DNA of 63,298 nt, the filler included, from an uncultured bacterium (GTDB lineage: Bacteria > CAZSTA01): assembly GCA_964609495.1 (NCBI GenBank). It is 8 parts of 8 records of this genome, joined end to end, with 100 filler letters (N's around TTAATTAATTAA, not from the genome) between each part and the next. Parts side by side here need not be neighbours in the genome. Positions count along the whole stretch, not along the records: positions 1 to 7,993 come from CAZSTA010000173.1; 7 more parts are not named here. One strand, 5' to 3'. Of this stretch, positions 1 through 16,123 are shown one piece after another (positions within the stretch are counted from its first letter, which is position 1; every line of letters begins with the position of its first letter). The notes under the pieces are model-generated. The model was given only the letters and a program-made list of their open reading frames with translations, was not told the DNA's origin and did no database searches. The position numbers were made by a program, and so were the translations under genes.

Positions 1-60
1 CTCGGATTCTGCAAGTTGAAGCTCCTCTTTCAAACTCTTGATCAAATTATCTTCACTCAT
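1..60 (-). CDS. hypothetical protein, 5' part only (MSEDNLIKSLKEELQLAESE...), runs off the window
   Basis: ATG at 60 preceded by RBS AGGAGGTG; open frame to the window edge. Confidence 0.65.
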   Translation of the reverse strand, partial: MSEDNLIKSLKEELQLAESE

Positions 61-106
61 CTATTCTCACCTCCTCTCGTCTCTGTCTAGTCTATCTTAA
101 TTCAAG

Positions 107-124
107 GCAGTCAACGTTGACTGC
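107..124. promoter_or_regulatory. perfect 18-bp palindrome GCAGTCAACGTTGACTGC (operator or hairpin)
   Basis: self-complementary, intergenic between two minus-strand ORFs. Confidence 0.45.
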
Positions 125-146
125 TTCCCTTAACTTTTATACAATA

Positions 147-509
147 TTACCTTTGAGAATTAGACCCAAAATAGAATGCGTGCCAAAATTCCTTACCTTG
201 CAAACGATGATATCTTAATTCGTTAGTTCGAGGAAGATCCGGTCCATCATCTAGTTGACTTTTCAATTCCTGCTCCTTCTCGATTAATTCGTGATAGCGA
301 TTTAGATATCGAAGTGCTGTCTCTAGCCACACCTCATACTTGGGATCACTCTTCGGTGGCTCTTCTGCAAAGTGCACTCCAAGATATTCTAATCCTAATT
401 TGATATGCTTTTGTGTATTCGCAAGCTCTGATCTCAAAGCCTCTAAATTATCTTTACTCTGCTTATCCTCTATACCACATCTCTCCATTCGATCAAGTAA
501 TCCTAACAT
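147..509 (-). CDS. hypothetical coiled-coil protein of the mobile element (about 120 aa)
   Basis: track ORF 147..554; better start is ATG at 509 after GAGGAGG, because the longer version runs into the iteron region. Confidence 0.7.
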   Translation of the reverse strand: MLGLLDRMERCGIEDKQSKDNLEALRSELANTQKHIKLGLEYLGVHFAEEPPKSDPKYEVWLETALRYLNRYHELIEKEQELKSQLDDGPDLPRTNELRYHRLQGKEFWHAFYFGSNSQR

Positions 510-534
510 TGTTATCCTCCTCTCAATACTCTTT

Positions 535-813
535 TGTAACCCTTGTAACCACATGTAACCGTTTTTGTAGCCCTTCCAAAGTCCACTTATTGATTGTATT
601 TTCTTTATCTTGTAACCTTTGTAACCCTTTTGTATAACATATATAAAATATATATTTTTATGGAATATATTAACTCAAGTATTCTTATATTTTAGAATTA
701 TATTTAGTATATCAAACTTTTTGGTTACAAAGGTTACAAAGTATAATTTAGTTAGTTGTAGAGTAAAAATCAAAGTGGTTACATTTTGGTTACAAACGGT
801 TACAAGGGTTACA
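535..813. repeat. putative replication origin: TGTAACC/GGTTACA iterons flanking an AT-rich core
   Basis: TGTAACC at 535, 544, 554, 566 (TGTAGCC), 611, 620; GGTTACA at 723, 732, 777, 788, 798, 807; AT-rich 627-722; directly 3' of the primase-helicase. Confidence 0.8.
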
Positions 814-3733
814 TTTCTGAAGTAAATCCACTAAAGTCTAAATGCTCCTTTGCCTTATCAAAATCAAGAACAATGGCACTCTTTACCTTGGTCCCCACTC
901 GACAGGCTTTTTTCGTGGCTTTAACGAAGCCTTTACTACTACAATCCTCCCTAAACTGTACCCTATAAGCTTTCTCGTTAAGTCCCCCAGCTATATCGTG
1001 TTCCCTACAAAACTTTTTAAAAGCTAAGACACTACTAGGTAAATGTAGGTATAGCTCCGAGCTATCAGCAGAAAAATCATATTCATCACCCTTCTTTATA
1101 ATCCCTTTTTCCGCCATTATCGCAAGAATTTCCAATAAGGTATCAACAGCTCTCTTGACGTGTCCGTGATCGAAGCCTAATTCCTCTTTATAGCTCTTAA
1201 TAAATCCGCTTATCCCTTCTTCTATGATCTGATCATCCAAGATGTAGTTAAATTGTCTCAGAAATTCATCTAGCATAACCAAACCGAATATCACTACTCT
1301 GATATTATCTCTAGGTCGTGAAGCTAGGTCAATATCGGTGCTATCGCTACTTTTCCACCGAGTTACCTCTTCCCAAAAGGGAGTGGGATCGGTATTTAAC
1401 ACAAAACGGATATATCTCTCTATAAAGCCTCTCAAGGGGAGTTTAGTTAAAGAATAAAAAGCCTTCTCATTTTTCATATTAGGATTAAGATTGATAGGGA
1501 TAACCCTCTCCAAGAGAGCTGATTCTGTAACCGTAACCTCCCCAGCGAATACAACAGGGGTTGTGATATGATATGCTACAAGAGTGAGATCAGGTCGTCC
1601 TCTAGTTTCGATCTCACTATCATAAGCTCGTCTTATTAAGCGGTGAAAATAATTTACTTGATAAGGCTTCATATCACTAGGCTTATATTCATCTATGAAA
1701 ATAGGTATAGCGTTAGAGCTTGAGAAGAGCTTTATAAAGGAAAATTCAGTTTCAGTTACCGAATAGGCTTCCTCTCTATTCACACCCATAAGAGGCCAAT
1801 AGATTCTTCTTATGGTTTGAGATTTTCCCGCTCCGAAAGTTCCCCAAAGCTGAAGTATTGGAAAGTGTCCAAGTATCTTATGGATAAAGGGTCTAAATGG
1901 AGTAGCCATAAACCAGCCTAAGATAGGTATAACTACCTTCGGCTCGTTAAGCCCCAAGAGATTAGGGATTATAGAATAGATAAATTGTCTATACTCCTCA
2001 TCAGATAGGGATAGATAGTTAATTGATTTAGGGAAGCTCGCTCCACTATCAATATAGGTTTCCTCTGGATTGGTGATCCAGCCATCCTTACTCAATATCC
2101 CTTGAGGGAGTATCCACTTTTCTGTTTCTNNNNNNNNNNTATCCAAGCCGATAGTGATATATCCCTTTTTTCGTGGGATTGGATATGTCTTAAAGATATA
2201 ATCGAGTATCCGCTGAATTGGCACATCTCCACTAAAAAAGGTATTACAATTAAGATCGGGTAGAGCTGATAGAAAACGAGGTTTTGAGGAAAAATCACTT
2301 TGCTTAAAGGTCTTTTCCGCTGATCTTCCACTTTCGGTTTTTACATCAGCTATCATACTCATTCCTTGATCTTCCACTGATACTACAAGCTTGGGAATTA
2401 AGATAAAGTTAGTTAGCTTTTTTAATTCCCCTTTAACCCCAAATTGATAATAGCAATTATCAACCTCTGATACTAGCGGCTCTCTCTGGATTATCTTATC
2501 CCCTTTAGTCTTCTGCTCTATCCTCTCCTCAAGTTTCTTCTTTAGCACTGCTCTAGCTTCTTCTGGCAAACTCTCCAGATATTCGTCGGGAGGTAGAGCC
2601 TTTGAGATCACCTCTCTAAAGTCCTCGGCAGTATGACCATCAGCTAAAGCACTATCGCAATCCACCTTCCCGTCTTTTCCTCTCCACTCGTCTGGCAACC
2701 TAGCAATTCTACAGTTAAATCCAGTTTTCGATAGCTTTCTAGCTATTCTTATGCTCCATTCGTCACTATTGTATTTATCTCCCTCATTATCGAAAAGGAT
2801 CGNNNNNNNNNNCTCTATCTTATGTTTTTTAAGCAATTTCTCAAGTTGGGGAAATTTATTCCCTCCAAAAGAATTAATACCAGGGATGCTTATCGCTGGT
2901 ATCCCTAGCTGATAAAGAGCAACTGCCTTAAATTCACTTTCAGTTAAGATAATATGTTGAGGATCATCTTTAATCAGAAATTCGCAATATATCTCAACAC
3001 TATCACCTTTGAGATATATTTTATGGGGGCGAATCTTATAAACACTCCTATCTGCTTTCAGATAAGGGATTAAAATCGTTCCCTTTGATAACAGAGTGTT
3101 AATTTGGGTTGATTTGCTATTACTTGTCATCAATTTACTTTTTATCAATTCATCTATGCTAAATTCCTTCTTCAATAACGTAATAACTTTAGAGACAATA
3201 TTTATATCCCCAGATCGAAACCCAAATTTATCCATAATCTCATCTGTATATCCTCTCTTCTTTTTAAGTGTTGCTCGATCCTCATCAGTTAGTTTTGCCT
3301 CCTCAATAAAGCTGGTGTAAATCTGGATTAACCGCTCTTTGTTTAGTCTTGAAGATTTATCAGCTTTTTGAGGGGGTGGTTTTGTGATTGCTTCACCCAT
3401 CTTATCATTACCTCCCTTCTTAATCGAAATACCAACTCTACCAGCCAGGTAATTAAGAGCCTCCACAAAGCTGATATTTCGGATTTTCATAATAAACTCA
3501 AATACATCTCCATCCTCCCCACAACCATAGCAGTGATATTTCTGGTCTTTTGGATATACCGTGAAAGATGCCTTATTCTCATCATGGAAAGGACACATAC
3601 CCTGGTAACTATCACCCACTCGTCTCAGCTTTATTCCGAACTCTTCAACTATGTCAATTATATCATTCCTTTCCCTGATTCGCTCTTTATCCATTAACTT
3701 ATCAAGATCACCTTTTCTCTCATTGCTATCCAT
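809..3733 (-). CDS. primase-helicase fusion (CHC2 zinc finger, TOPRIM-like primase, DUF927/SF3-like ATPase)
   Basis: CPFHDE...CYGC zinc finger; LTESEFKA and DCD acidic motifs; Walker A GTFGAGKS, Walker B FIDE; RBS AGGAGG; two short internal N gaps. Confidence 0.9.
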   Translation of the reverse strand: MDSNERKGDLDKLMDKERIRERNDIIDIVEEFGIKLRRVGDSYQGMCPFHDENKASFTVYPKDQKYHCYGCGEDGDVFEFIMKIRNISFVEALNYLAGRVGISIKKGGNDKMGEAITKPPPQKADKSSRLNKERLIQIYTSFIEEAKLTDEDRATLKKKRGYTDEIMDKFGFRSGDINIVSKVITLLKKEFSIDELIKSKLMTSNSKSTQINTLLSKGTILIPYLKADRSVYKIRPHKIYLKGDSVEIYCEFLIKDDPQHIILTESEFKAVALYQLGIPAISIPGINSFGGNKFPQLEKLLKKHKIEXXXXILFDNEGDKYNSDEWSIRIARKLSKTGFNCRIARLPDEWRGKDGKVDCDSALADGHTAEDFREVISKALPPDEYLESLPEEARAVLKKKLEERIEQKTKGDKIIQREPLVSEVDNCYYQFGVKGELKKLTNFILIPKLVVSVEDQGMSMIADVKTESGRSAEKTFKQSDFSSKPRFLSALPDLNCNTFFSGDVPIQRILDYIFKTYPIPRKKGYITIGLDXXXXETEKWILPQGILSKDGWITNPEETYIDSGASFPKSINYLSLSDEEYRQFIYSIIPNLLGLNEPKVVIPILGWFMATPFRPFIHKILGHFPILQLWGTFGAGKSQTIRRIYWPLMGVNREEAYSVTETEFSFIKLFSSSNAIPIFIDEYKPSDMKPYQVNYFHRLIRRAYDSEIETRGRPDLTLVAYHITTPVVFAGEVTVTESALLERVIPINLNPNMKNEKAFYSLTKLPLRGFIERYIRFVLNTDPTPFWEEVTRWKSSDSTDIDLASRPRDNIRVVIFGLVMLDEFLRQFNYILDDQIIEEGISGFIKSYKEELGFDHGHVKRAVDTLLEILAIMAEKGIIKKGDEYDFSADSSELYLHLPSSVLAFKKFCREHDIAGGLNEKAYRVQFREDCSSKGFVKATKKACRVGTKVKSAIVLDFDKAKEHLDFSGFTSEM

Positions 3734-3818
3734 TTTATAAAACCTCCTTTATAAATAAAAATTATTTTGCCCTAATTCCATCGCATATTTTCCCATAATA
3801 TTTAACAATATCCAACTC

Positions 3819-3847
3819 TTGACAAATTCAGAAATTTATGGTATAAT
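3819..3847 (+). promoter_or_regulatory. consensus sigma70 promoter with extended -10
   Basis: TTGACA(3819)-17 bp-TATAAT(3842), preceded by TGn. Confidence 0.8.
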
Positions 3848-3853
3848 ATAATT

Positions 3854-3927
3854 AGAGTAAGTAATATAATAGAATATCATCGGTAGAATAAAAAGCTGAC
3901 TGCCCAAAAACTTCAGCTTTTTATTCT
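3854..3927 (+). ncRNA. candidate antisense (countertranscript) RNA A
   Basis: perfect promoter, no ORF, ends in a 15-bp inverted repeat AGAATAAAAAGCTGA/TCAGCTTTTTATTCT (3885-3927). Confidence 0.5.
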
Positions 3928-4026
3928 TAATAGTAATCATTATCAAACATAAAATATACATTTGTAAGCCTGTTTATATTTTAATTATCAGTCATAATAT
4001 TAATTATATGTAAAAAATTCCAAGTA

Positions 4027-4055
4027 TTGACAATATCCCAAAAATTTGGTATAAT
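4027..4055 (+). promoter_or_regulatory. second consensus sigma70 promoter with extended -10
   Basis: TTGACA(4027)-17 bp-TATAAT(4050), preceded by TGn. Confidence 0.8.
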
Positions 4056-4061
4056 TAACAT

Positions 4062-4220
4062 AGAAGGAATATATAGAAATCCCCTCTTCAGAGCTACATC
4101 TCTGGAGAAAAAGTTTATAATAAAGATTACAAAATCTTATCTCAAATGGTGTCAATCTCATCTAATCTCAAATTCCATGCCTCTCTCCCAAGTCTACAAG
4201 AGGGTGGAATTTATTTTTTT
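4062..4220 (+). ncRNA. candidate antisense RNA B
   Basis: perfect promoter; internal hairpin near 4086-4109; terminal stem AAATTCCA..CCTCT/AGAGG..TGGAATTT (4170-4212) followed by a T-tract. Confidence 0.45.
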
Positions 4221-4232
4221 ATATCCTAAATT

Positions 4233-4430
4233 CTACTTTACCTCTATCAACTTATCAACTTCTTTCGCGTTGTTATTCCCTTCCAAATTCCCAATTCCCA
4301 GATGATTACTCAATAACTCGACAATAATCTTAGTCATCGTTTTCCTTTCTCTAGCAGCACTCACCTTCAGGTCTTCCTTCATTTTTCTTGGTATTTTAAT
4401 AAATAAATTATCAAATTCTATCTTTACCAC
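4233..4430 (-). CDS. ribbon-helix-helix (CopG/Arc-like) transcriptional repressor
   Basis: LFIKIPRKMKEDLKVSAARERKTMTKIIVELLSNHL fits the RHH pattern; the track's TTG start lies in the -35 box, GTG at 4430 is more plausible. Confidence 0.7.
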   Translation of the reverse strand: MVKIEFDNLFIKIPRKMKEDLKVSAARERKTMTKIIVELLSNHLGIGNLEGNNNAKEVDKLIEVK

Positions 4431-4463
4431 CCTCTTTGTATGTTGATTTATTGGTCTATTTAA

Positions 4464-4493
4464 ATTATACCATAAGTTGTTTTTCTCTGTCAA
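4464..4493 (-). promoter_or_regulatory. sigma70 promoter for the RHH-primase transcript
   Basis: TTGACA-18 bp-TATAAT with TGn on the minus strand. Confidence 0.75.
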
Positions 4494-4534
4494 ATAAAAG
4501 TAAATAAAAATTTATTAGTAAGCAATATTTAAGG

Positions 4535-4562
4535 AAGGGGAGCTTATCAATAGCTCCCCTTT
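4535..4562. terminator. hairpin/terminator after the FtsK operon
   Basis: AAGGGGAGCT-7 nt-AGCTCCCCTT immediately after the stop at 4568. Confidence 0.65.
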
Positions 4563-4567
4563 GCGTT

Positions 4568-5023
4568 TCAATATTCGGTAATATTTTCGGAGCGATCATT
4601 CGTAGTAGTGGGTATATATCGCTTGCTTTGATTAAGGATTAAGGCTAGAGCCTCCAGGGTGCTTTGATCTAGTTTAATCGGTTGATTCGGAACTTGCCTT
4701 CCGCTTGGAAGCTCCCTTTGTGGATTACCGTCGATGTAATAAGGGATATCACGGGGATTCACTTCCCTCGCTTCCCCGTTTTTGATAAGGATTACATTGC
4801 TAGGCTGGTTACCTCTAGCTTTGCTATGCTCTAAGGAAAAGTGGAGAGCTAAGGATAGAATCATCACCACGATTCCGAGTACTGCACATCCGATAAAACC
4901 GATATTACAATTGTAGCCGAATTCGTATAGCTCATAGTATTCTGCTATTTGCATACCGATCATACAAGCTCCAGCCGTTAGGAAAAGAAAAATCGAAGCT
5001 CCTATACCGCCCTTAATTAACAT
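4568..5023 (-). CDS. membrane protein with two predicted N-terminal TM segments
   Basis: two hydrophobic stretches, RBS AAGGATGGTG. Confidence 0.75.
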   Translation of the reverse strand: MLIKGGIGASIFLFLTAGACMIGMQIAEYYELYEFGYNCNIGFIGCAVLGIVVMILSLALHFSLEHSKARGNQPSNVILIKNGEAREVNPRDIPYYIDGNPQRELPSGRQVPNQPIKLDQSTLEALALILNQSKRYIPTTTNDRSENITEY

Positions 5024-5152
5024 CTTAAATTCACCATCCTTTGATTTTATTTTACTTCCAAAAACAGCCCTAAAATACCTTAAAATAGCATATATTTTAA
5101 CTGTCCTTTGACACTTAATTTATCTAATCCTAGATTAACTTTACAAGTGTCT

Positions 5153-5223
5153 GGACAGTAGAGCGGACACATAAGGACACTTAGTTTATAAGGACACTTG
5201 GTCGGACATTACTAAGGACACTT
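5153..5223. repeat. direct-repeat cluster GGACA(CTT) overlapping the FtsK-like gene stop
   Basis: GGACA at 5153, 5165, 5175, 5192, 5204, 5216; three copies read TAAGGACACTT. Confidence 0.7.
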
Positions 5224-6530
5224 AATACCTCGTTCAAAACATCCTTATTGATCGGTCTTGGACTCTTACCATCTGGAGCTTCACCTAATAGACTCTCAAT
5301 TTGATCTAACTGTTTTATGATTGCACTTGCCTTATCTTTACTTACCCCGATTCCATCCCTTAGCTTCCTTACAGATATACCATCATTAGATTTGAGATAA
5401 GACAATACTTCCTCTGATATAGCCTTAAAACTTTCGATATCTCTAAGCTCTTGGGTATCCCTTGCCTCGGTCCGGTCCGATATTGGACCAAGTCCACCTT
5501 CTACTAGGGCAAGGGTGGAAGTAGAAGTTTCGCTCTCTATAGGATAGCCTTCTAGTAAATCACCTATTGGGATATTTACCCTTGCATAGCCTAAGCTAGA
5601 GATAACGAACGCTTCACCTATCCTTAGCTTGCTACAGTTTATCTCTTTAACTCCAGTTAAAGCATTACTTTCGATCTTATCACTTACTCTCATAATAATT
5701 TTAGCACTTGCATTTTCTCTAATGAGATTCGATTGGATTAGAGATTTTTTAGATGTGATCATACTAAGTATAAGATGAACTCGGCTTGACCTTCCCTTCA
5801 TAGCGATAGCTTCTATAAAGCCCTTTGCTATATCAGATAAGCTGATAAGCGAATTAACTTCATCTAAAACAATCAATATTGGCTTGTAACTTCCCGCTCT
5901 TTTCTCACGTCTTAGCATAATCTCATATACATCAGATAAGCACACTTCAATATCTGATATATTCTTTATCACATCATATCGCAAGCTATCACAAGCGTTA
6001 AAACAATCTAAATCAGCTTTAGGGGTATATAACAGCATATCAACTTTTTTACTCTCTATATCCCTCTCCAGCACGGAAGATATGATGTTGTGTAGTAGAG
6101 AAGTTTTACCGGACCCACTGCTACCAGCTATAATCACGTGTGGATTGCGATCCCCAATCTCCAGCGTGATCATAGTATTGAAAATATCAACTCCTATGAG
6201 TAGCGATAAGGGATTAGAGTATATCTCTTTATGATCACCCTCTAGCCTCTCTAAAAGAGAAGATAAAAGAAGATCGCCTTGTGGCTCGGAGTTGATTATG
6301 AGATGATAGCAATCTTCCCCTTGCACCAGTGATATATCGGCTTCTTTTACTCCGATCCACATTGCTATTTTTGATAACAACTTAGGTATGAGTTCGGCTT
6401 TTCGGATGTCTGGAGATATATTGATTGTAACTGTAGAATACCCTACGATCTCTTTGTCAAGCTCCACTTCGATATCGTATATATCGAATAGATCATATAA
6501 GCGTTGATAGATATATCTCAAATCTAGCAT
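5181..6530 (-). CDS. FtsK/SpoIIIE (TraB-like) DNA translocase ATPase with C-terminal winged helix and no N-terminal TM domain
   Basis: PHVIIAGSSGSGKT Walker A, LIVLDE Walker B, AMKGRSSRVHLI motif, C-terminal ISVRKLRDGIGVSKDKASAIIKQL; ATG at 6530 follows GAGGTG (track start 6539). Confidence 0.85.
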   Translation of the reverse strand: MLDLRYIYQRLYDLFDIYDIEVELDKEIVGYSTVTINISPDIRKAELIPKLLSKIAMWIGVKEADISLVQGEDCYHLIINSEPQGDLLLSSLLERLEGDHKEIYSNPLSLLIGVDIFNTMITLEIGDRNPHVIIAGSSGSGKTSLLHNIISSVLERDIESKKVDMLLYTPKADLDCFNACDSLRYDVIKNISDIEVCLSDVYEIMLRREKRAGSYKPILIVLDEVNSLISLSDIAKGFIEAIAMKGRSSRVHLILSMITSKKSLIQSNLIRENASAKIIMRVSDKIESNALTGVKEINCSKLRIGEAFVISSLGYARVNIPIGDLLEGYPIESETSTSTLALVEGGLGPISDRTEARDTQELRDIESFKAISEEVLSYLKSNDGISVRKLRDGIGVSKDKASAIIKQLDQIESLLGEAPDGKSPRPINKDVLNEVLSVLSNVRPSVLIN

Positions 6531-6543
6531 AACTTTCACCTCT

Positions 6544-6711
6544 CTATTTATCTTCTGATATGATTATGATAGTATCTGGAGATATAGCCTCAACTTCCTC
6601 TTGGATATCATCTTTTCTAATCAGATAAACGATTAGATATCCGAGCGGAATACTTGCTAAAGCCCCTAATCCTCCTCCTATGATTATTGCAGCTAAATTA
6701 TCTAAATCCAC
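6544..6711 (-). CDS. 55-aa single-TM membrane protein missing from the ORF track (MDLDNLAAIIIGGGLGALASIPLGYLIVYLIRKDD...)
   Basis: GTG start overlaps the upstream stop (TAGTG); fills the gap exactly; one hydrophobic helix followed by RK. Confidence 0.75.
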   Translation of the reverse strand: MDLDNLAAIIIGGGLGALASIPLGYLIVYLIRKDDIQEEVEAISPDTIIIISEDK

Positions 6712-7904
6712 TATACCATCGTCTCCTCTCTATATCTCTGGATATATTGATCTCTTAGCTTCTTCTCCTCATCAGGAGATAAGAATATTCCCTCCAATTG
6801 CAAGCCGAATTTTCTGATCACCAGCCTCTCCTCGGCTCTTTGCTCTGGAGTCTTCCTTTTCTCATCCTCTAATTCCCTCTCCCACTCAAGTCTTAGCTTT
6901 TGGGACTCCTCTTTGAAAGCCTCAATAGTCTCCCAATTGGTAGCAAGGGGATCGGGTTTGCTCTTGGGAGCTAAGTCCCAGCCTTTATCGAGACTTGACC
7001 TGAACCAGCCTCTCAGGTTTTTAATCTTCTCCTTACCATTTGAGCTAAAGTGCCTTCGCATATCTCCAAGTTGTTTGAGGACAGTTTCGTAGCTATGATC
7101 TTTTAAGCGATCGTAGAAATATTCTTCAACAGAGGAGTTGTCATCGGATAACCTAAAGTCAATAACTACCCGATTCCATTGAGAGGCTAAGCCTTTTGCA
7201 TAATAAGTCTTCTTGGTATCCTCAGAGATAACAATATCCGGTCCGTTCTTTTGAGAATCAAAAACAACAACAGAGTCGGATTCGGTAGAAACCGATTTCT
7301 GATCAGATTCTACTGGTGGCGGACCTGTTGTTGTCTTCTTCTTAGTATGTCTTCTACGTAGTATGTCTTCCTTCCGCAAATTGCGGTGGGGTTGATCCGC
7401 ATTCTGCGGTGGGGTTAATCCGCAAATTGCGGTTTTACCCTCTTTCTCCTCTCCCTCAGCGATTCTCTCTTTTAGCTTCTCTTCATCTTCGGGAGTTAGA
7501 GGATCATCCATTGCTACATAATAGAGATTGCTAGTTCTTCCTCCTTGTCCCTTATTATTATATCTTGGTTCTATCCTGACAAATAGCTTTGCTTCGGGTT
7601 TTTTAAGTTCCCTCTGGACTGTATCCACGCTAATACCACAAGCCTCCGCTATGAACTTTAATGATGGCCAACAGTAATCTCTCTTCTCTCCTGTCTCAGG
7701 ATTGTAATAACATCTTCGCCTTAACTCCATTACTATTACCGTCAAAGTCGGTCCGAGTCTCGGCTTCCACTTATCCCAAAAATACTTGGTCTCTACCACT
7801 ATATTTTTGGGTTGCACGATCTCATTCCTTAGATCGTGATAAAACGGGTGTAATTCGATCTGCTCATCTGTTGGCTTATCCATTATCTCTTGCTTTCTAT
7901 CCAT
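6711..7904 (-). CDS. winged-HTH replication initiator (phage replisome-organizer/lambda O-like)
   Basis: CWPSLKFIAEACGISVDTVQRELKK HTH; C-terminal IKNLRGWFRSSLDKGW motif; internal iterons; RBS GGAGGT. Confidence 0.8.
   Translation of the reverse strand: MDRKQEIMDKPTDEQIELHPFYHDLRNEIVQPKNIVVETKYFWDKWKPRLGPTLTVIVMELRRRCYYNPETGEKRDYCWPSLKFIAEACGISVDTVQRELKKPEAKLFVRIEPRYNNKGQGGRTSNLYYVAMDDPLTPEDEEKLKERIAEGEEKEGKTAICGLTPPQNADQPHRNLRKEDILRRRHTKKKTTTGPPPVESDQKSVSTESDSVVVFDSQKNGPDIVISEDTKKTYYAKGLASQWNRVVIDFRLSDDNSSVEEYFYDRLKDHSYETVLKQLGDMRRHFSSNGKEKIKNLRGWFRSSLDKGWDLAPKSKPDPLATNWETIEAFKEESQKLRLEWERELEDEKRKTPEQRAEERLVIRKFGLQLEGIFLSPDEEKKLRDQYIQRYREETMV
7343..7433. repeat. intragenic iterons of the initiator gene (second origin)
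   Basis: CCGCA-N3-TGCGG at 7374, 7397, 7420 (23-bp period), plus tandem TAGTATGTCTTC just before. Confidence 0.75.
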
Positions 7905-7993
7905 TTCCTCTTACCTCCATTCCTGCCTCTTTAGGTGTTCGATTATTTTTTCTGCGATTACATTTTCTACAAGCTGTTATCAAATTCTCTGGG

Positions 7994-8093
7994 NNNNNNN
8001 NNNNNNNNNNNNNNNNNNNNNNNNNNNNNNNNNNNNNTTAATTAATTAANNNNNNNNNNNNNNNNNNNNNNNNNNNNNNNNNNNNNNNNNNNN
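7994..8093. other. artificial contig spacer (same spacer at 16024, 24052, 32036, 39956, 47808, 55614)
   Basis: 44 N + TTAATTAATTAA (stops in six frames) + 44 N. Confidence 0.98.
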
Positions 8094-11379: not shown

Positions 11380-14300
11380 ATGTTGAGCAGAGCATTAAAG
11401 CTGGGTTCTGAATATGAAGATTTTAGAGAGATAATAAGGACGATCGAAGCTGGAGGGTCCGGCTGGAGTTTAAGCGGATTAGGAGAAGGAGCTAAGGCTT
11501 ACTTCCTAGCCGTTTTGTATCTCACTCTCAGGAGACCTCTTTTGATTATCACTTCTAATCAGGAGAAAGCGCTTCAATTATATGATGATCTCTTGAGCTT
11601 CTGGGGAGAGGGGGTATATCTCTTTCCTAGTTGGGAGATATTGCCCTATGAGCCTGCCTCTCCGAGCAATCAACTTGTGGGGGAACGTCTCCTAGTTCTG
11701 GATAAACTTCTCCAACGGGAGAGGGTCTGTGTAGTAGCGACGGTGAAAGCGATATCTCATAAGCTCATTCCGCCCAGGATCTTCGCGGCTAATGTTATGC
11801 GCTTAAGACAGGGGCAATTAATCCCTCAAGAGGAACTCCTCTCCAAACTGGTATGGCAGGGTTTTAAGAGTTCCCCTATGGTCGAGAATAGAGGAGAGTT
11901 CAGTCATCGCGGGGGGATCATCGATATCTTCCCTAGTTCGGCTTCCCATCCCTGGAGATTGGAATTCTTCGGTGATGAGATCGAATCGATCCGCCAATTC
12001 GAGGTGGCAACCCAAAGATCAATAGATAAAAGCGAAAAGATAACGATTCTGCCCGAGAGAGAAGTATTGATCGCAGGGGGGATCGTAAAGGAGGCAACTA
12101 AGCGAATTACGAGGGCGCTTGAGCAATTCCTGGAAAAGCAGGATAAGAGGAAAGTGGCTTCTCGACACCTAGAGGGGATATTACAATCTGGAGATAGAGA
12201 AGCTCAGGCTCTTCAACAGATCATCTCCGAACACCTTGTCGGTGCTAGCCAAAGATTGAGGGAGCGAGTCGAGGAGGAAGTAGAGAAATTGTCTGCAGGT
12301 GTCTATTTCAGCGGCATCGAGTCCTATCTTCCCCTCCTCTATCCTGAACTGGAGACCTTCTTCTCCTATCTTCCGAGGGATGTCCTTACCGTCCTCGATG
12401 AGCCTTTGCGGATCGAGGAGAGTAGTAAGATGTGGGAAGAAGACGTGGCTTCCTCCTATATTACCGCTTTAGAAAGAGCGGAGATACTGCCTCATTCTAC
12501 CTCTCCGTATCTCTCGAAAGAGGAGATAATGTCTCAACTGAAGAGCAGGCAACATCTCAATCTCTCTCTTCTCCCTCTTGGTGGCTCTAAGGAGAAGGAG
12601 ATAGCTATAAATACCGTCGAAAATTTCTCCGGAAAGTGGGAGGAATTAGTTGTTACTTTAGAGCATTGGCAGCAGGAAGGTTATAGGATCGTGATCTTGA
12701 TCAATACCAGGGGGCAATTGGAGAGAGTAGAGGAATTGTTAGAAGAATGGGAGCTCTTCCCGATTATCTCCTCCGAGCAGGAGGGCGCCCCAGAACAAGA
12801 TTTGCAGAACGGTAATGTCTATCTAGTGGAGGGTCGATTAAGCACTGGCTTTCGTCTTCCCGCCCTGAAACTAGCTGTTCTGACGGAAAATGAGATCTTT
12901 AGCCGCCGTAAAACTAGAAGGAAGCGTTGGACATTCACCGATAGTAGTCAGGCGATCAGCAGTTATACCGATCTGAAGGTCAGCGATTATGTAGTTCACA
13001 TCAATTATGGCATAGGACAGTATTTAGGGACCCAAACCTTGGATATCGAGGGATCGCTCAGGGATTATATGGCGATTCGCTATGCCGATAAGGATCGCCT
13101 CTATATCCCCCTCGATCAGGTCGATCTTATTCAGAAGTATATTGGGGTGGAGGGACATACTCCAAGGCTTTCTAATTTAAGCGGAGGAAATTGGCAACAG
13201 ATCAAGCAGAGAGCGAAACGGGCAGTAAGAAAGATGGCCAGAGAATTGCTGGAACTATATGCACTTCGAGGATCGCTTCCCGCCTATGCTTTCTCGACTG
13301 ATACTCCTTGGCAACATGAGTTGGAAAGTTCCTTCGAGTATGAGGAGACTCCAGATCAACTGCGGGCTACCTCCGAGATCAAGGAGGATATGGAGGCTTC
13401 ACGCCCTATGGATCGTCTGGTCTGTGGTGATGTGGGTTATGGCAAGACCGAGGTAGCAGTGAGATCGGCATTTAAAGCAATTCTTGATTCGAAACAAGTG
13501 GCGATCCTAGTGCCTACCACCATTCTGGCTCAACAGCATCTGAACACCTTCCAGGAAAGATTCTCGCCCTTCCCCATCAGGGTGGAAATGCTGAGCCGTT
13601 TTAAGACCCCTCGAGAGCAAAGAGATATCTTAAAGGATCTCAAGCAGGGAAAGATAGATGTGGTAATCGGCACTCATCGACTTATCCAGAAGGATGTAGA
13701 ATTCCATGACTTGGGATTGGTTATAATAGATGAGGAGCAACGTTTTGGTGTGGTTCATAAGGAGAGGTTAAAGGAGTTAAGAAAAACTGTTGATGTCCTT
13801 ACTATGACTGCGACTCCGATCCCTCGCACCCTTCATATGTCCCTGGCTGGAATCAGGGATATGAGCATAATCAATACCCCTCCTGAGGATAGATTGCCGA
13901 TAGCAACTTTCGTCGTTCCCTTCGATAGGGAGCTCATCACCGAGGCGATCTTAAGGGAGCTCTCGCGAGGGGGGCAGGTCTATTTCGTCCACAACCGAGT
14001 GCAGAGTATCGCCTCCATGGCGAGCTTCGTCCAGAGGCTTGTCCCTCAAGCTCGCGTGGCTATAGCCCATGGACAGATGAGAGAGAGGGAATTGGAACAT
14101 ATTATGACTCGTTTCATCGAGGAGGAATACGATATCTTGGTATGCACCACCATAATCGAGTCGGGGTTGGATATCACTAATGTTAATACCATTATAGTGG
14201 ATGGAGCCCATTATCTCGGTCTTGCTCAGTTATATCAACTGCGCGGTCGAGTGGGGAGAGCTAAGCGCCAAGCCTATGTCTATTTCCTCTATCCAAGAGG

Positions 14301-15000
14301 GCGAGCTCTCTCCGAGGTGGCCGAGAAGAGGTTGCAGGCTATAAGAGAGTTCACCGAATTGGGCTCCGGTTTCAAGCTCGCTATGCGAGATCTGGAGATC
14401 AGAGGGGCAGGTAATATTCTGGGAGCGGAACAGCATGGTCATTTGATCGCGGTGGGTTTCGAGATGTATTGTCGTCTCCTCGCTGAGGCGGTTAAAGAAC
14501 TAAAAGGTGAGGGAATCGAGATCGAATTTGAGAAGCTTCGTCCTAGCATCGATCTCAAGATTCAAGCTCGTATCCCCGATGACTATATATCCTCTCCTGA
14601 ATTGAAGATAGAGGCCTATCGAAAGATGGCTTATGCTGAGAAAGAGGAGGAGATAAAGGACCTCGAGTGGGAGTTGGAGGACCGTTATGGTGCTCCTCCA
14701 ACTACTGTGCGGAATCTTCTGAAAGTAATTCTTCTGAGGATATTGGCTAAAAATAAGGGCATTAGATCTTTAAGTAGCGGGCCGCGAGGTATAGCTATCG
14801 AATTAGAGGAGGAGACTCGTTGGAACAAGAAATCTTTAGAGCCACTTCTTCGCCAATATCAAGGGCGCCTTTCCCTCTCAGGACGCGGCACGCCTCGTCT
14901 CCTCCTCAATAACAAGGGTGCTAGCGAGGGCAAATTATTAAGTTGGCTAGAGAAGATATTAAGGACTGTTGAAACTGAGAGGACGATATGGAAGCCTTGA
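11380..15000 (+). CDS. mfd: transcription-repair coupling factor
   Basis: UvrB-like N terminus, CarD/RID domain, GDVGYGKT, DEEQRFG, QLRGRVGR, TRCF C-terminal domain. Confidence 0.97.
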   Translation: MLSRALKLGSEYEDFREIIRTIEAGGSGWSLSGLGEGAKAYFLAVLYLTLRRPLLIITSNQEKALQLYDDLLSFWGEGVYLFPSWEILPYEPASPSNQLVGERLLVLDKLLQRERVCVVATVKAISHKLIPPRIFAANVMRLRQGQLIPQEELLSKLVWQGFKSSPMVENRGEFSHRGGIIDIFPSSASHPWRLEFFGDEIESIRQFEVATQRSIDKSEKITILPEREVLIAGGIVKEATKRITRALEQFLEKQDKRKVASRHLEGILQSGDREAQALQQIISEHLVGASQRLRERVEEEVEKLSAGVYFSGIESYLPLLYPELETFFSYLPRDVLTVLDEPLRIEESSKMWEEDVASSYITALERAEILPHSTSPYLSKEEIMSQLKSRQHLNLSLLPLGGSKEKEIAINTVENFSGKWEELVVTLEHWQQEGYRIVILINTRGQLERVEELLEEWELFPIISSEQEGAPEQDLQNGNVYLVEGRLSTGFRLPALKLAVLTENEIFSRRKTRRKRWTFTDSSQAISSYTDLKVSDYVVHINYGIGQYLGTQTLDIEGSLRDYMAIRYADKDRLYIPLDQVDLIQKYIGVEGHTPRLSNLSGGNWQQIKQRAKRAVRKMARELLELYALRGSLPAYAFSTDTPWQHELESSFEYEETPDQLRATSEIKEDMEASRPMDRLVCGDVGYGKTEVAVRSAFKAILDSKQVAILVPTTILAQQHLNTFQERFSPFPIRVEMLSRFKTPREQRDILKDLKQGKIDVVIGTHRLIQKDVEFHDLGLVIIDEEQRFGVVHKERLKELRKTVDVLTMTATPIPRTLHMSLAGIRDMSIINTPPEDRLPIATFVVPFDRELITEAILRELSRGGQVYFVHNRVQSIASMASFVQRLVPQARVAIAHGQMRERELEHIMTRFIEEEYDILVCTTIIESGLDITNVNTIIVDGAHYLGLAQLYQLRGRVGRAKRQAYVYFLYPRGRALSEVAEKRLQAIREFTELGSGFKLAMRDLEIRGAGNILGAEQHGHLIAVGFEMYCRLLAEAVKELKGEGIEIEFEKLRPSIDLKIQARIPDDYISSPELKIEAYRKMAYAEKEEEIKDLEWELEDRYGAPPTTVRNLLKVILLRILAKNKGIRSLSSGPRGIAIELEEETRWNKKSLEPLLRQYQGRLSLSGRGTPRLLLNNKGASEGKLLSWLEKILRTVETERTIWKP

Positions 15001-16008: not shown

Positions 16009-16123
16009 GAATCGCAGTTCTCANNNNNNNNNNNNNNNNNNNNNNNNNNNNNNNNNNNNNNNNNNNNTTAATTAATTAANNNNNNNNNNNNNNNNNNNNN
16101 NNNNNNNNNNNNNNNNNNNNNNN

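Follow-up and report, generated by a model that had tools for sequence, protein, structure and literature searches.

A contig of 7993 nt (CAZSTA010000173.1) from an uncultured bacterium (assembly GCA_964609495.1, GTDB lineage Bacteria; CAZSTA01) carries genes that may form a small machine for moving double-stranded plasmid DNA. The contig makes up positions 1–7993 of the 63,298-nt stretch of DNA that was analyzed, which is called the window in the following. The components of interest are an FtsK-type ATPase without transmembrane (TM) segments (5181–6530, minus strand), an array of GGACAC(TT) repeats at the 3' end of its gene (5099–5223), and two small membrane proteins, TM1 (6544–6711, minus strand) and TM2 (4568–5023, minus strand), which are encoded on either side of the ATPase. 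We consider it quite possible, if somewhat short of an even chance, that the contig harbors a plasmid DNA-pump module of a TraB/clt-like or FtsK-like kind. Whether such a pump is loaded at the GGACAC array is evenly balanced. As the likeliest role of the module we favor, with considerable reservation, a relaxase-free transfer between cells of the TraB/clt kind.

The FtsK-type ATPase

The first-pass annotation of this DNA had described an FtsK-like ATPase that carries a winged helix at its C-terminus and lacks a TM domain, and this description was borne out. The open reading frame (ORF) is listed at 5181–6539 on the minus strand. The ATG at 6530, preceded by AGAGGTGA, is the likely true start, since the database copy (P0001) comprises 449 amino acids (aa) and the homologs begin at this position. 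The 449-aa protein contains the Walker A motif GSSGSGKT and matched the Pfam family FtsK_SpoIIIE (PF01580) with an E-value of 2.4e-9. When the profile of the ATPase family was compared to PDB, FtsK motor structures came first (4.5e-19), and EccC, TcpA (5e-6), and HerA followed far behind. A Foldseek search with the model of the ATPase placed FtsK motors bound to double-stranded DNA (dsDNA) at the top (2e-14 to 1e-11), followed by TcpA (1.8e-10). The Kyte-Doolittle hydropathy of the protein had its maximum at 1.51 and, because no window of 19 residues reached 1.6, no TM helix is predicted. The AlphaFold2 model, with a predicted local distance difference test (pLDDT) value of 63.8, comprised an alpha/beta N-domain, a RecA-like core, a disordered linker (residues ~323–367), and a C-terminal domain of three helices plus a wing (residues ~376–443), for which the pLDDT was about 80. 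A single-sequence AlphaFold2 prediction of only the C-terminal 97 aa had a pLDDT of 52.5.

The profile of the ATPase family could be aligned to a canonical FtsK protein of 782 aa (P0059) with E = 2e-27; the alignment spans 408 columns, beginning in the alpha domain and reaching the final helix of gamma. Many canonical FtsK proteins of 700–900 aa matched profile positions ~10–430 in one stretch that reached their C-termini, and the C-terminal 95 aa of the ATPase aligned in register with FtsK gamma domains (hhalign E = 3.8e-4, probability 36%). In contrast, Tra of pIJ101, the sole Tra protein compared, matched the profile over 197 core columns only (E = 3.5e-8), and TraD of the pELF type over 185 core columns only (E = 1.2e-15); TraD has no aligning alpha-like N-domain and no gamma-like winged helix-turn-helix (wHTH). 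Since the alignment to FtsK covers the full length and those to Tra and TraD only the core, we concluded that the ATPase is, as judged from its sequence, a stand-alone FtsK alpha-beta-gamma motor that lacks the 4-TM domain and the linker, and that it would fall outside the Tra family and outside the families of coupling proteins. The canonical FtsK proteins among its matches carry PF13491 (named 'FtsK 4TM' at NCBI), which the ATPase does not have. In FtsK the gamma domain reads polar 8-mers of the chromosome, and the winged helix orients the hexameric pump on dsDNA.

PADLOC returned generic FtsK-like matches only (mad8 with 2.6e-16, and SspH) and no partner genes of a defense system. The best PHROGs matches were FtsK/SpoIIIE-like morons. 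It is very improbable that the contig stems from a small virus with a membrane or from a vesicle-borne element, in which the ATPase would package DNA at a pac-like array and the TM proteins would belong to the envelope. Among the members of the FtsK-HerA superfamily are packaging ATPases of viruses that contain a membrane, the ATPase showed a weak match to a 'terminase large subunit' family of PHROGs (8.1e-8), and the contig encodes several small TM proteins together with its own primase and initiator. However, its best PHROGs matches are not packaging enzymes, and Pfam and PHROGs scans detected no capsid, spike, or lysis gene. In addition, the element and its relatives were absent from 2.9 million IMG/VR contigs, as judged by two scans each with motifs and with proteins. 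IMG/VR contigs with matches of 32–34% identity were rejected as family members, as these contigs represent tailed phages whose FtsK-like protein has 232 aa and belongs to a different family.

The family of the ATPase is small. Five near-full-length relatives with 41–56% identity were found among 5.8 billion proteins, and eight clusters with E ≤ 6.5e-35 among 1.84 billion representatives. Apart from two fragments, the family members have lengths of 434–467 aa, and none of the eight clusters showed an N-terminal TM extension. The residues of the recognition helix differ between the members and the scaffold is kept, as would be expected for proteins that read element-specific sites. P0045 is only 28% identical to the ATPase overall, yet its wing segment (…LLG..PDGKSP.PINK..L.E.LSV…) is almost identical and its recognition helix differs. 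This suggests an exchange or recombination of parts within the DNA-reading domain. Protein-profile scans for DNA encoding homologs of the ATPase in metagenome, genome, and viral contigs, with a tblastn check, yielded distant proteins, with at most 34% identity among the matches listed. Two degenerate DNA motifs specific for the family did not reveal a family member in genome or viral contigs, and nothing was found when collections of contigs were searched with the TM2 profile and for Rep proteins.

The GGACAC array and candidate sites of the DNA-binding proteins

Six copies of GGACA in the same orientation start at positions 5153, 5165, 5175, 5192, 5204, and 5216 of the plus strand (5153–5223 in total), with spacings of 12, 10, 17, 12, and 12 nt; three of them read TAAGGACACTT. 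Three additional copies of the 8-mer with one mismatch are present at 5109 (plus), 5099 (minus), and 5145 (minus), and the copy at 5165 also has one mismatch. The first-pass annotation had placed the six repeats at the 3' end of the ATPase gene. The number and common orientation of the repeats were confirmed, but only three lie inside the gene: the copies at 5192, 5204, and 5216 fall within the last 14 codons, the copy at 5175 supplies the stop codon (5181–5183), and the copies at 5153 and 5165 lie in the 157-nt spacer (5024–5180) ahead of the TM2 gene. Short direct repeats thus overlap the 3' end of the motor gene, as is the case in clt. The last 14 codons encode …SVLSNVRPSVLIN, a tail that is not conserved in the homologs and that is disordered in the model, which argues that a signal at the DNA level dominates there.

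The clustering was not random. In 300 dinucleotide shuffles of the contig, six GGACA copies within 70 nt were never reached (maximum 3), and neither did any other 5-mer reach six copies within 70 nt in 300 such shuffles (maximum 5). GGACA as such is not enriched in the window (78 matches versus 80.3 expected). The exact sequence GGACACTT occurs four times in the 63-kb window; all four copies are on contig 1–7993, and three of them are inside the array.

Variants of the array were seen in contigs from other salt-marsh runs. A 2-nt insertion at 5170–5171, found in two runs, turns the sole spacing of 10 nt into 12 nt, and a T>C exchange at 5209 changes the fifth copy from GGACAT to GGACAC. Two further T>C exchanges (5108–5109) are located beside an inverted copy. 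These low-depth strain variants keep or improve the array; they stem from single contigs with a depth below 5, so that the observation is weak.

The array could serve another protein, either as iterons or copy-control sites of the initiator-like protein with an HTH_36 domain or as centromere or operator of the ribbon-helix-helix (RHH) protein encoded further downstream, and its overlap with the ATPase gene would then be incidental. We regard this as unlikely. Direct 8-mers that follow one another at roughly one turn of the helix are a typical feature of iterons and of centromeres bound by RHH proteins. A stretch with 24.7% GC adjoins the array, the RHH gene follows about 600 nt downstream, and a promoter-like site on the plus strand (5108–5136, 10/12) overlaps the array. 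The array is also positioned upstream of the TM2 gene, which it could regulate. On the other hand, three of the four exact GGACACTT copies of the window are in the array and all four are in the element, and a far better candidate for an origin is present elsewhere on the contig.

This origin-like region (534–814) is located between the primase gene and a 135-aa ORF (orf135). It comprises six copies of GGTTACA(A/T) on the minus strand (534–626) and six on the plus strand (723–814), which flank 96 nt with a GC content of only 13.5% (627–722). For the iteron word, GGTTACAA or GGTTACA(A/T), 68 matches were counted versus 30.2 expected, and none of 100 shuffles reached 68. Repeats that flank an AT-rich core beside a replication gene are what is expected of an iteron origin, and by its sequence the GGTTACAA array is the likelier replication origin of the two arrays. 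With the better origin candidate at 534–814, the GGACAC array is less likely to represent Rep iterons and is free to serve the pump.

The RHH regulator, an Arc/CopG-like protein, is encoded at 4233–4493 on the minus strand (Pfam RHH_1 with 0.018; Arc-like repressor of PHROGs with 1.2e-4). Its gene has its own perfect promoter at 4493–4464 (minus strand, 12/12 with TG). Since the TTG at which the 86-aa ORF 'starts' according to the ORF list coincides with the −35 box of this promoter, the real start of the protein should be further downstream. Two more perfect sigma-70 promoters with extended −10 region are present on the plus strand, at 3819–3847 and 4027–4055. All three are near-identical and have a repeated sequence in common, which makes them natural candidate targets of the RHH protein on sequence grounds. 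The RHH promoter has no GGACAC copy, which also speaks against the array as its operator. It is thus conceivable to pair the DNA-binding proteins of the contig with their sites without conflict: the initiator with GGTTACAA, the RHH protein with the promoters, and the winged helix of the pump with GGACAC. That each of the three proteins can be paired with a different site was counted in favor of the array being read by the pump.

The region around these promoters (3795–4493) looks like a control region with antisense RNA or convergent promoters and had no Rfam match. The promoter at 3819–3847 (plus) would yield an RNA with a length of about 80 nt and a perfect hairpin of 15 bp at its end (3885–3927; fold z −3.09). 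The promoter at 4027–4055 (plus) would yield a structured RNA (4062–4232; z −3.23) that is antisense into the RHH gene and faces the promoter at 4493–4464 (minus).

Membrane proteins, replicon, and relatives

A 55-aa ORF with a single TM segment, overlapping the stop of the initiator gene, and a protein with two TM segments had been named as neighbors of the ATPase, and both were recovered here. The 55-aa protein TM1 (6544–6711) has one hydrophobic segment (residues 3–31, hydropathy maximum 1.89) and an acidic tail at the C-terminus. The GTG with which its gene starts overlaps the TAG stop of the initiator gene by a single base, and its stop is 13 nt ahead of the ATG of the ATPase. Scans of family libraries, among them Pfam and PHROGs, gave no match for TM1. 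TM2 (4568–5023) has 151 aa, with two N-terminal TM helices within residues 1–66 and a tail of 88 aa that is predicted to be cytoplasmic. Four relatives with 88, 70, 67, and 51% identity were found for TM2; it matched no family in Pfam, PHROGs, NCBIfam, or PADLOC, and the ESM Atlas gave no usable matches. The prediction of a complex of ATPase and TM2 scored 0.12 with the mark at 0.32 and returned no answer.

The promoter scan revealed no promoter-like site on the minus strand within the spacer 5024–5180, and the terminator scan listed no terminator-like site between 4568 and 6711. As far as can be judged from the sequence, a single transcript comprising the genes for initiator, TM1, ATPase, and TM2 is plausible. 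A hairpin with an 8-bp stem (4537–4559) is located between the TM2 gene and the RHH promoter; it has a T-run on the plus-strand side and was absent from the list of the terminator scan.

In the window, contigs with a length of about 8 kb follow one another, separated by linkers that consist of N runs (7994–8093, 16024–16123, and later ones) plus an all-frame stop linker. Contig 1–7993 is a separate contig of low GC content (37.6% versus 44.0% in the rest of the window), and all of its long ORFs are on the minus strand. In the direction of transcription, a first block comprises the genes for a 974-aa primase and for the 135-aa protein and a short ORF that runs off the contig start. From the other contig end, the order is initiator (397 aa), TM1, ATPase, TM2, and RHH protein. 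This contig is best explained as a small replicon that resembles a plasmid and has a size of at least 8 kb. No terminal overlap was found for the 7993 nt. DNA near-identical to the contig is present at low depth in salt-marsh or marsh metagenome runs, and the Logan contigs from the salt-marsh runs (short, depth 2–8) contained no joint or end-spanning piece. An Rfam scan of the whole contig was without match.

The initiator-like protein (6711–7904, minus strand) has an N-terminal HTH_36 domain (Pfam 8.6e-8) and matched replication-initiation families of PHROGs (7.8e-10 to 1e-3). For its N-terminal half 88 relatives were found, some of which have DnaA_N or Bac_DnaA_C domains. The primase (809–3733, minus strand) is a fusion of a DnaG-type primase, with a CHC2 zinc ribbon and a DUF3854/Toprim-like part, and a C-terminal P-loop part; its Pfam matches were Zn_ribbon_DnaG (1.9e-31) and DUF3854 (3.3e-5). 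Two masks of 10 N each (2130–2139 and 2803–2812) interrupt this gene. The ESM Atlas gave no usable matches for the product of orf135.

The host was addressed by use of Mfd, which is encoded on another part of the window (11380–15000). Mfd aligned over its full length (residues 7–1197) with genomes from the phylum of a metagenome-assembled genome labeled Bacillota, with a best score of 1129 bits and matches in 295 of 301. The best matches in Chloroflexota spanned only residues ~276–1137 and had at most 855 bits (292 of 301 genomes matched). Since Mfd aligned over the full length in the one case and only partially in the other, the host bin looks Bacillota-like or mixed; it appears to be of low GC content and not actinomycete-like. 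The link of contig 1–7993 to the other contigs of the bin rests on binning alone, and the GC content differs.

The gene set is not restricted to this contig. The same 'longest contig 13,629' nt is given for homologs of the ATPase (P0002, 56% identity), of TM2 (P0036, 88%), and of the N-domain of the initiator (P0195, 66%), and an ATPase near-identical to P0002 is encoded on a contig of 13,543 nt (P0188). As homologs of ATPase, TM2, and initiator occur together on 13,629 nt, the gene set is conserved in at least one other element. This contig is 5.6 kb longer than contig 1–7993.

The first-pass annotation had also claimed that the contig lacks genes for a relaxase or a type IV secretion system (T4SS). 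Pfam scans of the seven minus-strand ORFs indeed detected none, which is weak support, since only 7993 nt without terminal overlap are available. This bears on a further possibility. TcpA of plasmid pCW3 from Clostridium perfringens is, according to the accessible part of the literature, the coupling protein of a T4SS-like system. The ATPase could likewise act as type IV coupling protein, similar to TcpA or to TraD of pELF plasmids, in a minimal conjugation system of the Gram-positive kind, with a relaxase and/or VirB4- and VirB6-like partners encoded beyond the contig end; we hold this to be improbable. The contig shows no sign of completeness, and the contig of the relative is longer. The ATPase shares with TcpA the FtsK/SpoIIIE-type NTPase (5e-6 for sequence, 1.8e-10 for fold) and with pELF-type TraD the core (1.2e-15) and the lack of TM helices. 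However, the matches to TcpA and TraD are confined to the core, the match to TcpA is weaker than that to FtsK, and it is FtsK to which the alpha-like domain at the N-terminus and the gamma-like wHTH at the C-terminus can be aligned. TcpA possesses TM helices in its N-terminal part and is not known to have a wHTH that reads DNA sequences. Pfam and PHROGs scans of the 7993 nt revealed no gene for a relaxase, a VirB4-like ATPase, or a channel.

A TM-less FtsK alpha-beta gene was also found in 8 of 401 Chloroflexota genomes searched. Eight of nine loci were examined; L154, a fragment at a contig end, was left out. A small 2-TM frame follows on the same strand in seven of the eight loci, and in L155 neither gene was flagged. 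In these pairs (L146, 5247–6616; L147, 6932–8389; L148–L153 and L156) the ATPase frames have 326–512 aa, and the 2-TM protein has a proline-rich tail. At least two of the loci are in housekeeping neighborhoods, and the genes may represent an undescribed split FtsK-like pair. No gamma domain was detectable in the five ATPases checked, and no array of at least three copies was present at the five ATPase/2-TM junctions examined. Short motifs seen by eye had raised the suspicion that TM2 is homologous to the Chloroflexota 2-TM proteins, but profile comparison did not support this (hhalign E = 0.09–0.46). We concluded that the Chloroflexota pairs are a parallel in architecture only.

Possible mode of action and comparison with known systems

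In the mechanism that we propose, the gamma-like winged helices of the pump would read the co-oriented GGACAC(TT) copies, and this reading would load the hexameric ring on the plasmid in one orientation. One or both of the small membrane proteins would hold the pump at the membrane or septum, and the pump would then drive double-stranded plasmid DNA through the membrane barrier. The binding of the winged helix to the repeats, the tethering to the membrane, and the direction and destination of transport are inferred. The plasmid context and the clustered array favor another cell as destination, while the FtsK-like sequence fits a daughter cell or forespore equally well. In its most complete form, the proposal is that of a relaxase-free dsDNA transfer system that evolved directly from chromosomal FtsK outside the actinomycetes, on a plasmid of 8–13 kb in a Bacillota-like salt-marsh bacterium of low GC content. 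Its stand-alone alpha-beta-gamma motor would be loaded at a clt-like array of its own 8-mers, with TM1 and TM2 as envelope tether in trans. We consider this complete form rather doubtful.

The closest analogy is found in the Tra/TraB/TraA translocases of Streptomyces plasmids with a clt (pSVH1, pIJ101, pJV1, and pWTY27). In the accessible part of the literature on Streptomyces plasmids, transfer requires no more than one FtsK-like protein, whose wHTH at the C-terminus recognizes direct repeats of 8 bp in clt; the tra operons also contain spd genes, which encode small membrane proteins, and TraB forms membrane pores. For plasmid pWTY27, the accessible text describes an experimentally mapped clt to which the 3' end of traA contributes 16 bp and the neighboring non-coding DNA 159 bp; TraA binds the four direct repeats of 7 bp (TGACACC) in this locus (PMC3583192). 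According to the same text, pWTY27 is a theta replicon that encodes RepA and a primase and has iterons apart from clt, and TraA possesses two TM helices (PMC3583192). Contig 1–7993 resembles these systems in several respects. It has a plasmid-borne FtsK-like ATPase with a C-terminal wHTH, repeats at and inside the 3' end of the gene, genes for small membrane proteins nearby, no relaxase gene on the contig, and a separate replicon with Rep protein, primase, and iterons. Compared with the pWTY27 layout as described there, the contig reproduces the arrangement, but lacks the TM segment of the motor and the Tra-like sequence. The ATPase has no TM or membrane-association segment, unlike pWTY27 TraA with its two helices, and its similarity to Tra is at the level of the core only. 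A further difference is that the element is of low GC content and that its bin is not actinomycete-like. No similarity of TM1 or TM2 to Spd proteins turned up; a direct comparison was not made. Of the TraB/clt likeness proposed by the first-pass annotation, the anatomy, close to that of pWTY27, therefore stands, and membership of the ATPase in the Tra family, as judged by the comparison with pIJ101 Tra, does not. We take the TraB/clt analogy as the best available model for how the module might work.

The first-pass annotation had further proposed that the motor is split from its membrane anchor. The ATPase is indeed TM-less and the TM proteins are separate and small, but the idea as such is not new. 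According to the accessible text on the Enterococcus faecium plasmid pELF2, its TraD is a TM-less ATPase of the FtsK/VirD4 type with 458 aa that is essential for conjugation (PMC13492992). This TraD is thought to reach the membrane via TraC, which has two TM helices, and TraG, and no nickase is reported for the plasmid in that text (PMC13492992). It works with a second ATPase, in a system with a 12-gene operon on a linear plasmid of about 100 kb, and a cis repeat array is not described in the accessible part of the source (PMC13492992). We saw a tra operon of the pELF2 type in record NZ_LR135245.1. Like TraD as portrayed there, the ATPase is a TM-less FtsK-type motor with candidate membrane partners encoded separately; the similarity of the two proteins is restricted to the core. 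With a TM-less conjugation ATPase that has membrane partners, pELF2 provides a precedent for an anchor in trans.

Chromosomal FtsK/SpoIIIE is the best match of the ATPase in sequence and fold over its whole length, with alpha, beta, and gamma in order. A role of the SpoIIIE gamma domain in reading DNA words is stated in a published abstract. Different from the chromosomal proteins, the ATPase has no N-terminal 4-TM domain and no long linker and is encoded by a plasmid, and its candidate words are clustered in one array of 125 bp, whereas those of a chromosome are distributed over its length with a skew. Septal plasmid pumping comes as a close second to intercellular transfer. The ATPase would then be a plasmid-specific FtsK/SpoIIIE-like segregation motor that is loaded at the polar 8-mer array of the plasmid, clears or pumps plasmid copies through closing division or sporulation septa, and may also assist in resolving multimers, and the plasmid would not be passed on to other cells. 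The probability we assign to this is low. In sequence and architecture the ATPase corresponds to FtsK alpha-beta-gamma and is far less similar to pIJ101 Tra, TcpA, or pELF TraD, and Pfam scans revealed no integrase, relaxase, or lysis gene on the contig. Chromosomal pairs of a TM-less FtsK alpha-beta protein and a 2-TM protein exist in housekeeping neighborhoods, and Bacillus has a soluble FtsK homolog, SftA. Against a segregation motor, no Xer-type recombinase and no dif-like site were seen on the contig, and small high-copy plasmids seldom need a motor of the FtsK kind. A single clustered array is more similar to clt than to a skewed motif that extends over a chromosome, and a family as rare as this one (eight clusters) is unlike a general maintenance function.

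Several observations weigh against transfer by a pump that is loaded at the array. The sequence of the ATPase is closer to that of chromosomal FtsK than to that of Tra, which would fit a role in segregation equally well. The gamma domain was assigned by use of profile alignments and of a model whose quality is medium (pLDDT 63.8), and Pfam found no FtsK_gamma match in the ATPase, only HTH_24 at 0.0089. In the five distant Chloroflexota loci the ATPases have no detectable gamma domain and no array of at least three copies lies between the ATPase and 2-TM genes; the profile comparison of TM2 with their 2-TM proteins points in the same direction. The AT-rich stretch at 5024–5100 adjoins the GGACAC array, where a second origin or a partition site is possible. 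Finally, the contig may be incomplete, and genes for a relaxase or VirB4-like proteins could lie outside of it.

In the accessible literature, Streptomyces and other actinomycetes are the only bacteria for which conjugation of dsDNA by one FtsK-like pump is described, and the 2026 study on the Enterococcus linear plasmid extends the concept of a minimal FtsK-type motor with membrane partners, as far as its accessible text goes (PMC13492992). If the array served a Rep or partition protein instead of the pump, the ATPase would be an unusual accessory FtsK paralog on a plasmid, which is of modest interest. If relaxase-free transfer by this module is true, TraB-type conjugation would have arisen repeatedly and convergently, rather than being tied to the mycelial mode of growth. 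One pump, one array, and two tiny membrane proteins would then constitute a minimal system for how dsDNA crosses two envelopes. Provided that it carries an unmodified FtsK alpha-beta-gamma motor, a candidate loading array, and the two membrane proteins, the tiny plasmid would be a compact test case for how a septal DNA pump is recruited for plasmid movement and for whether the anchor must belong to the motor.

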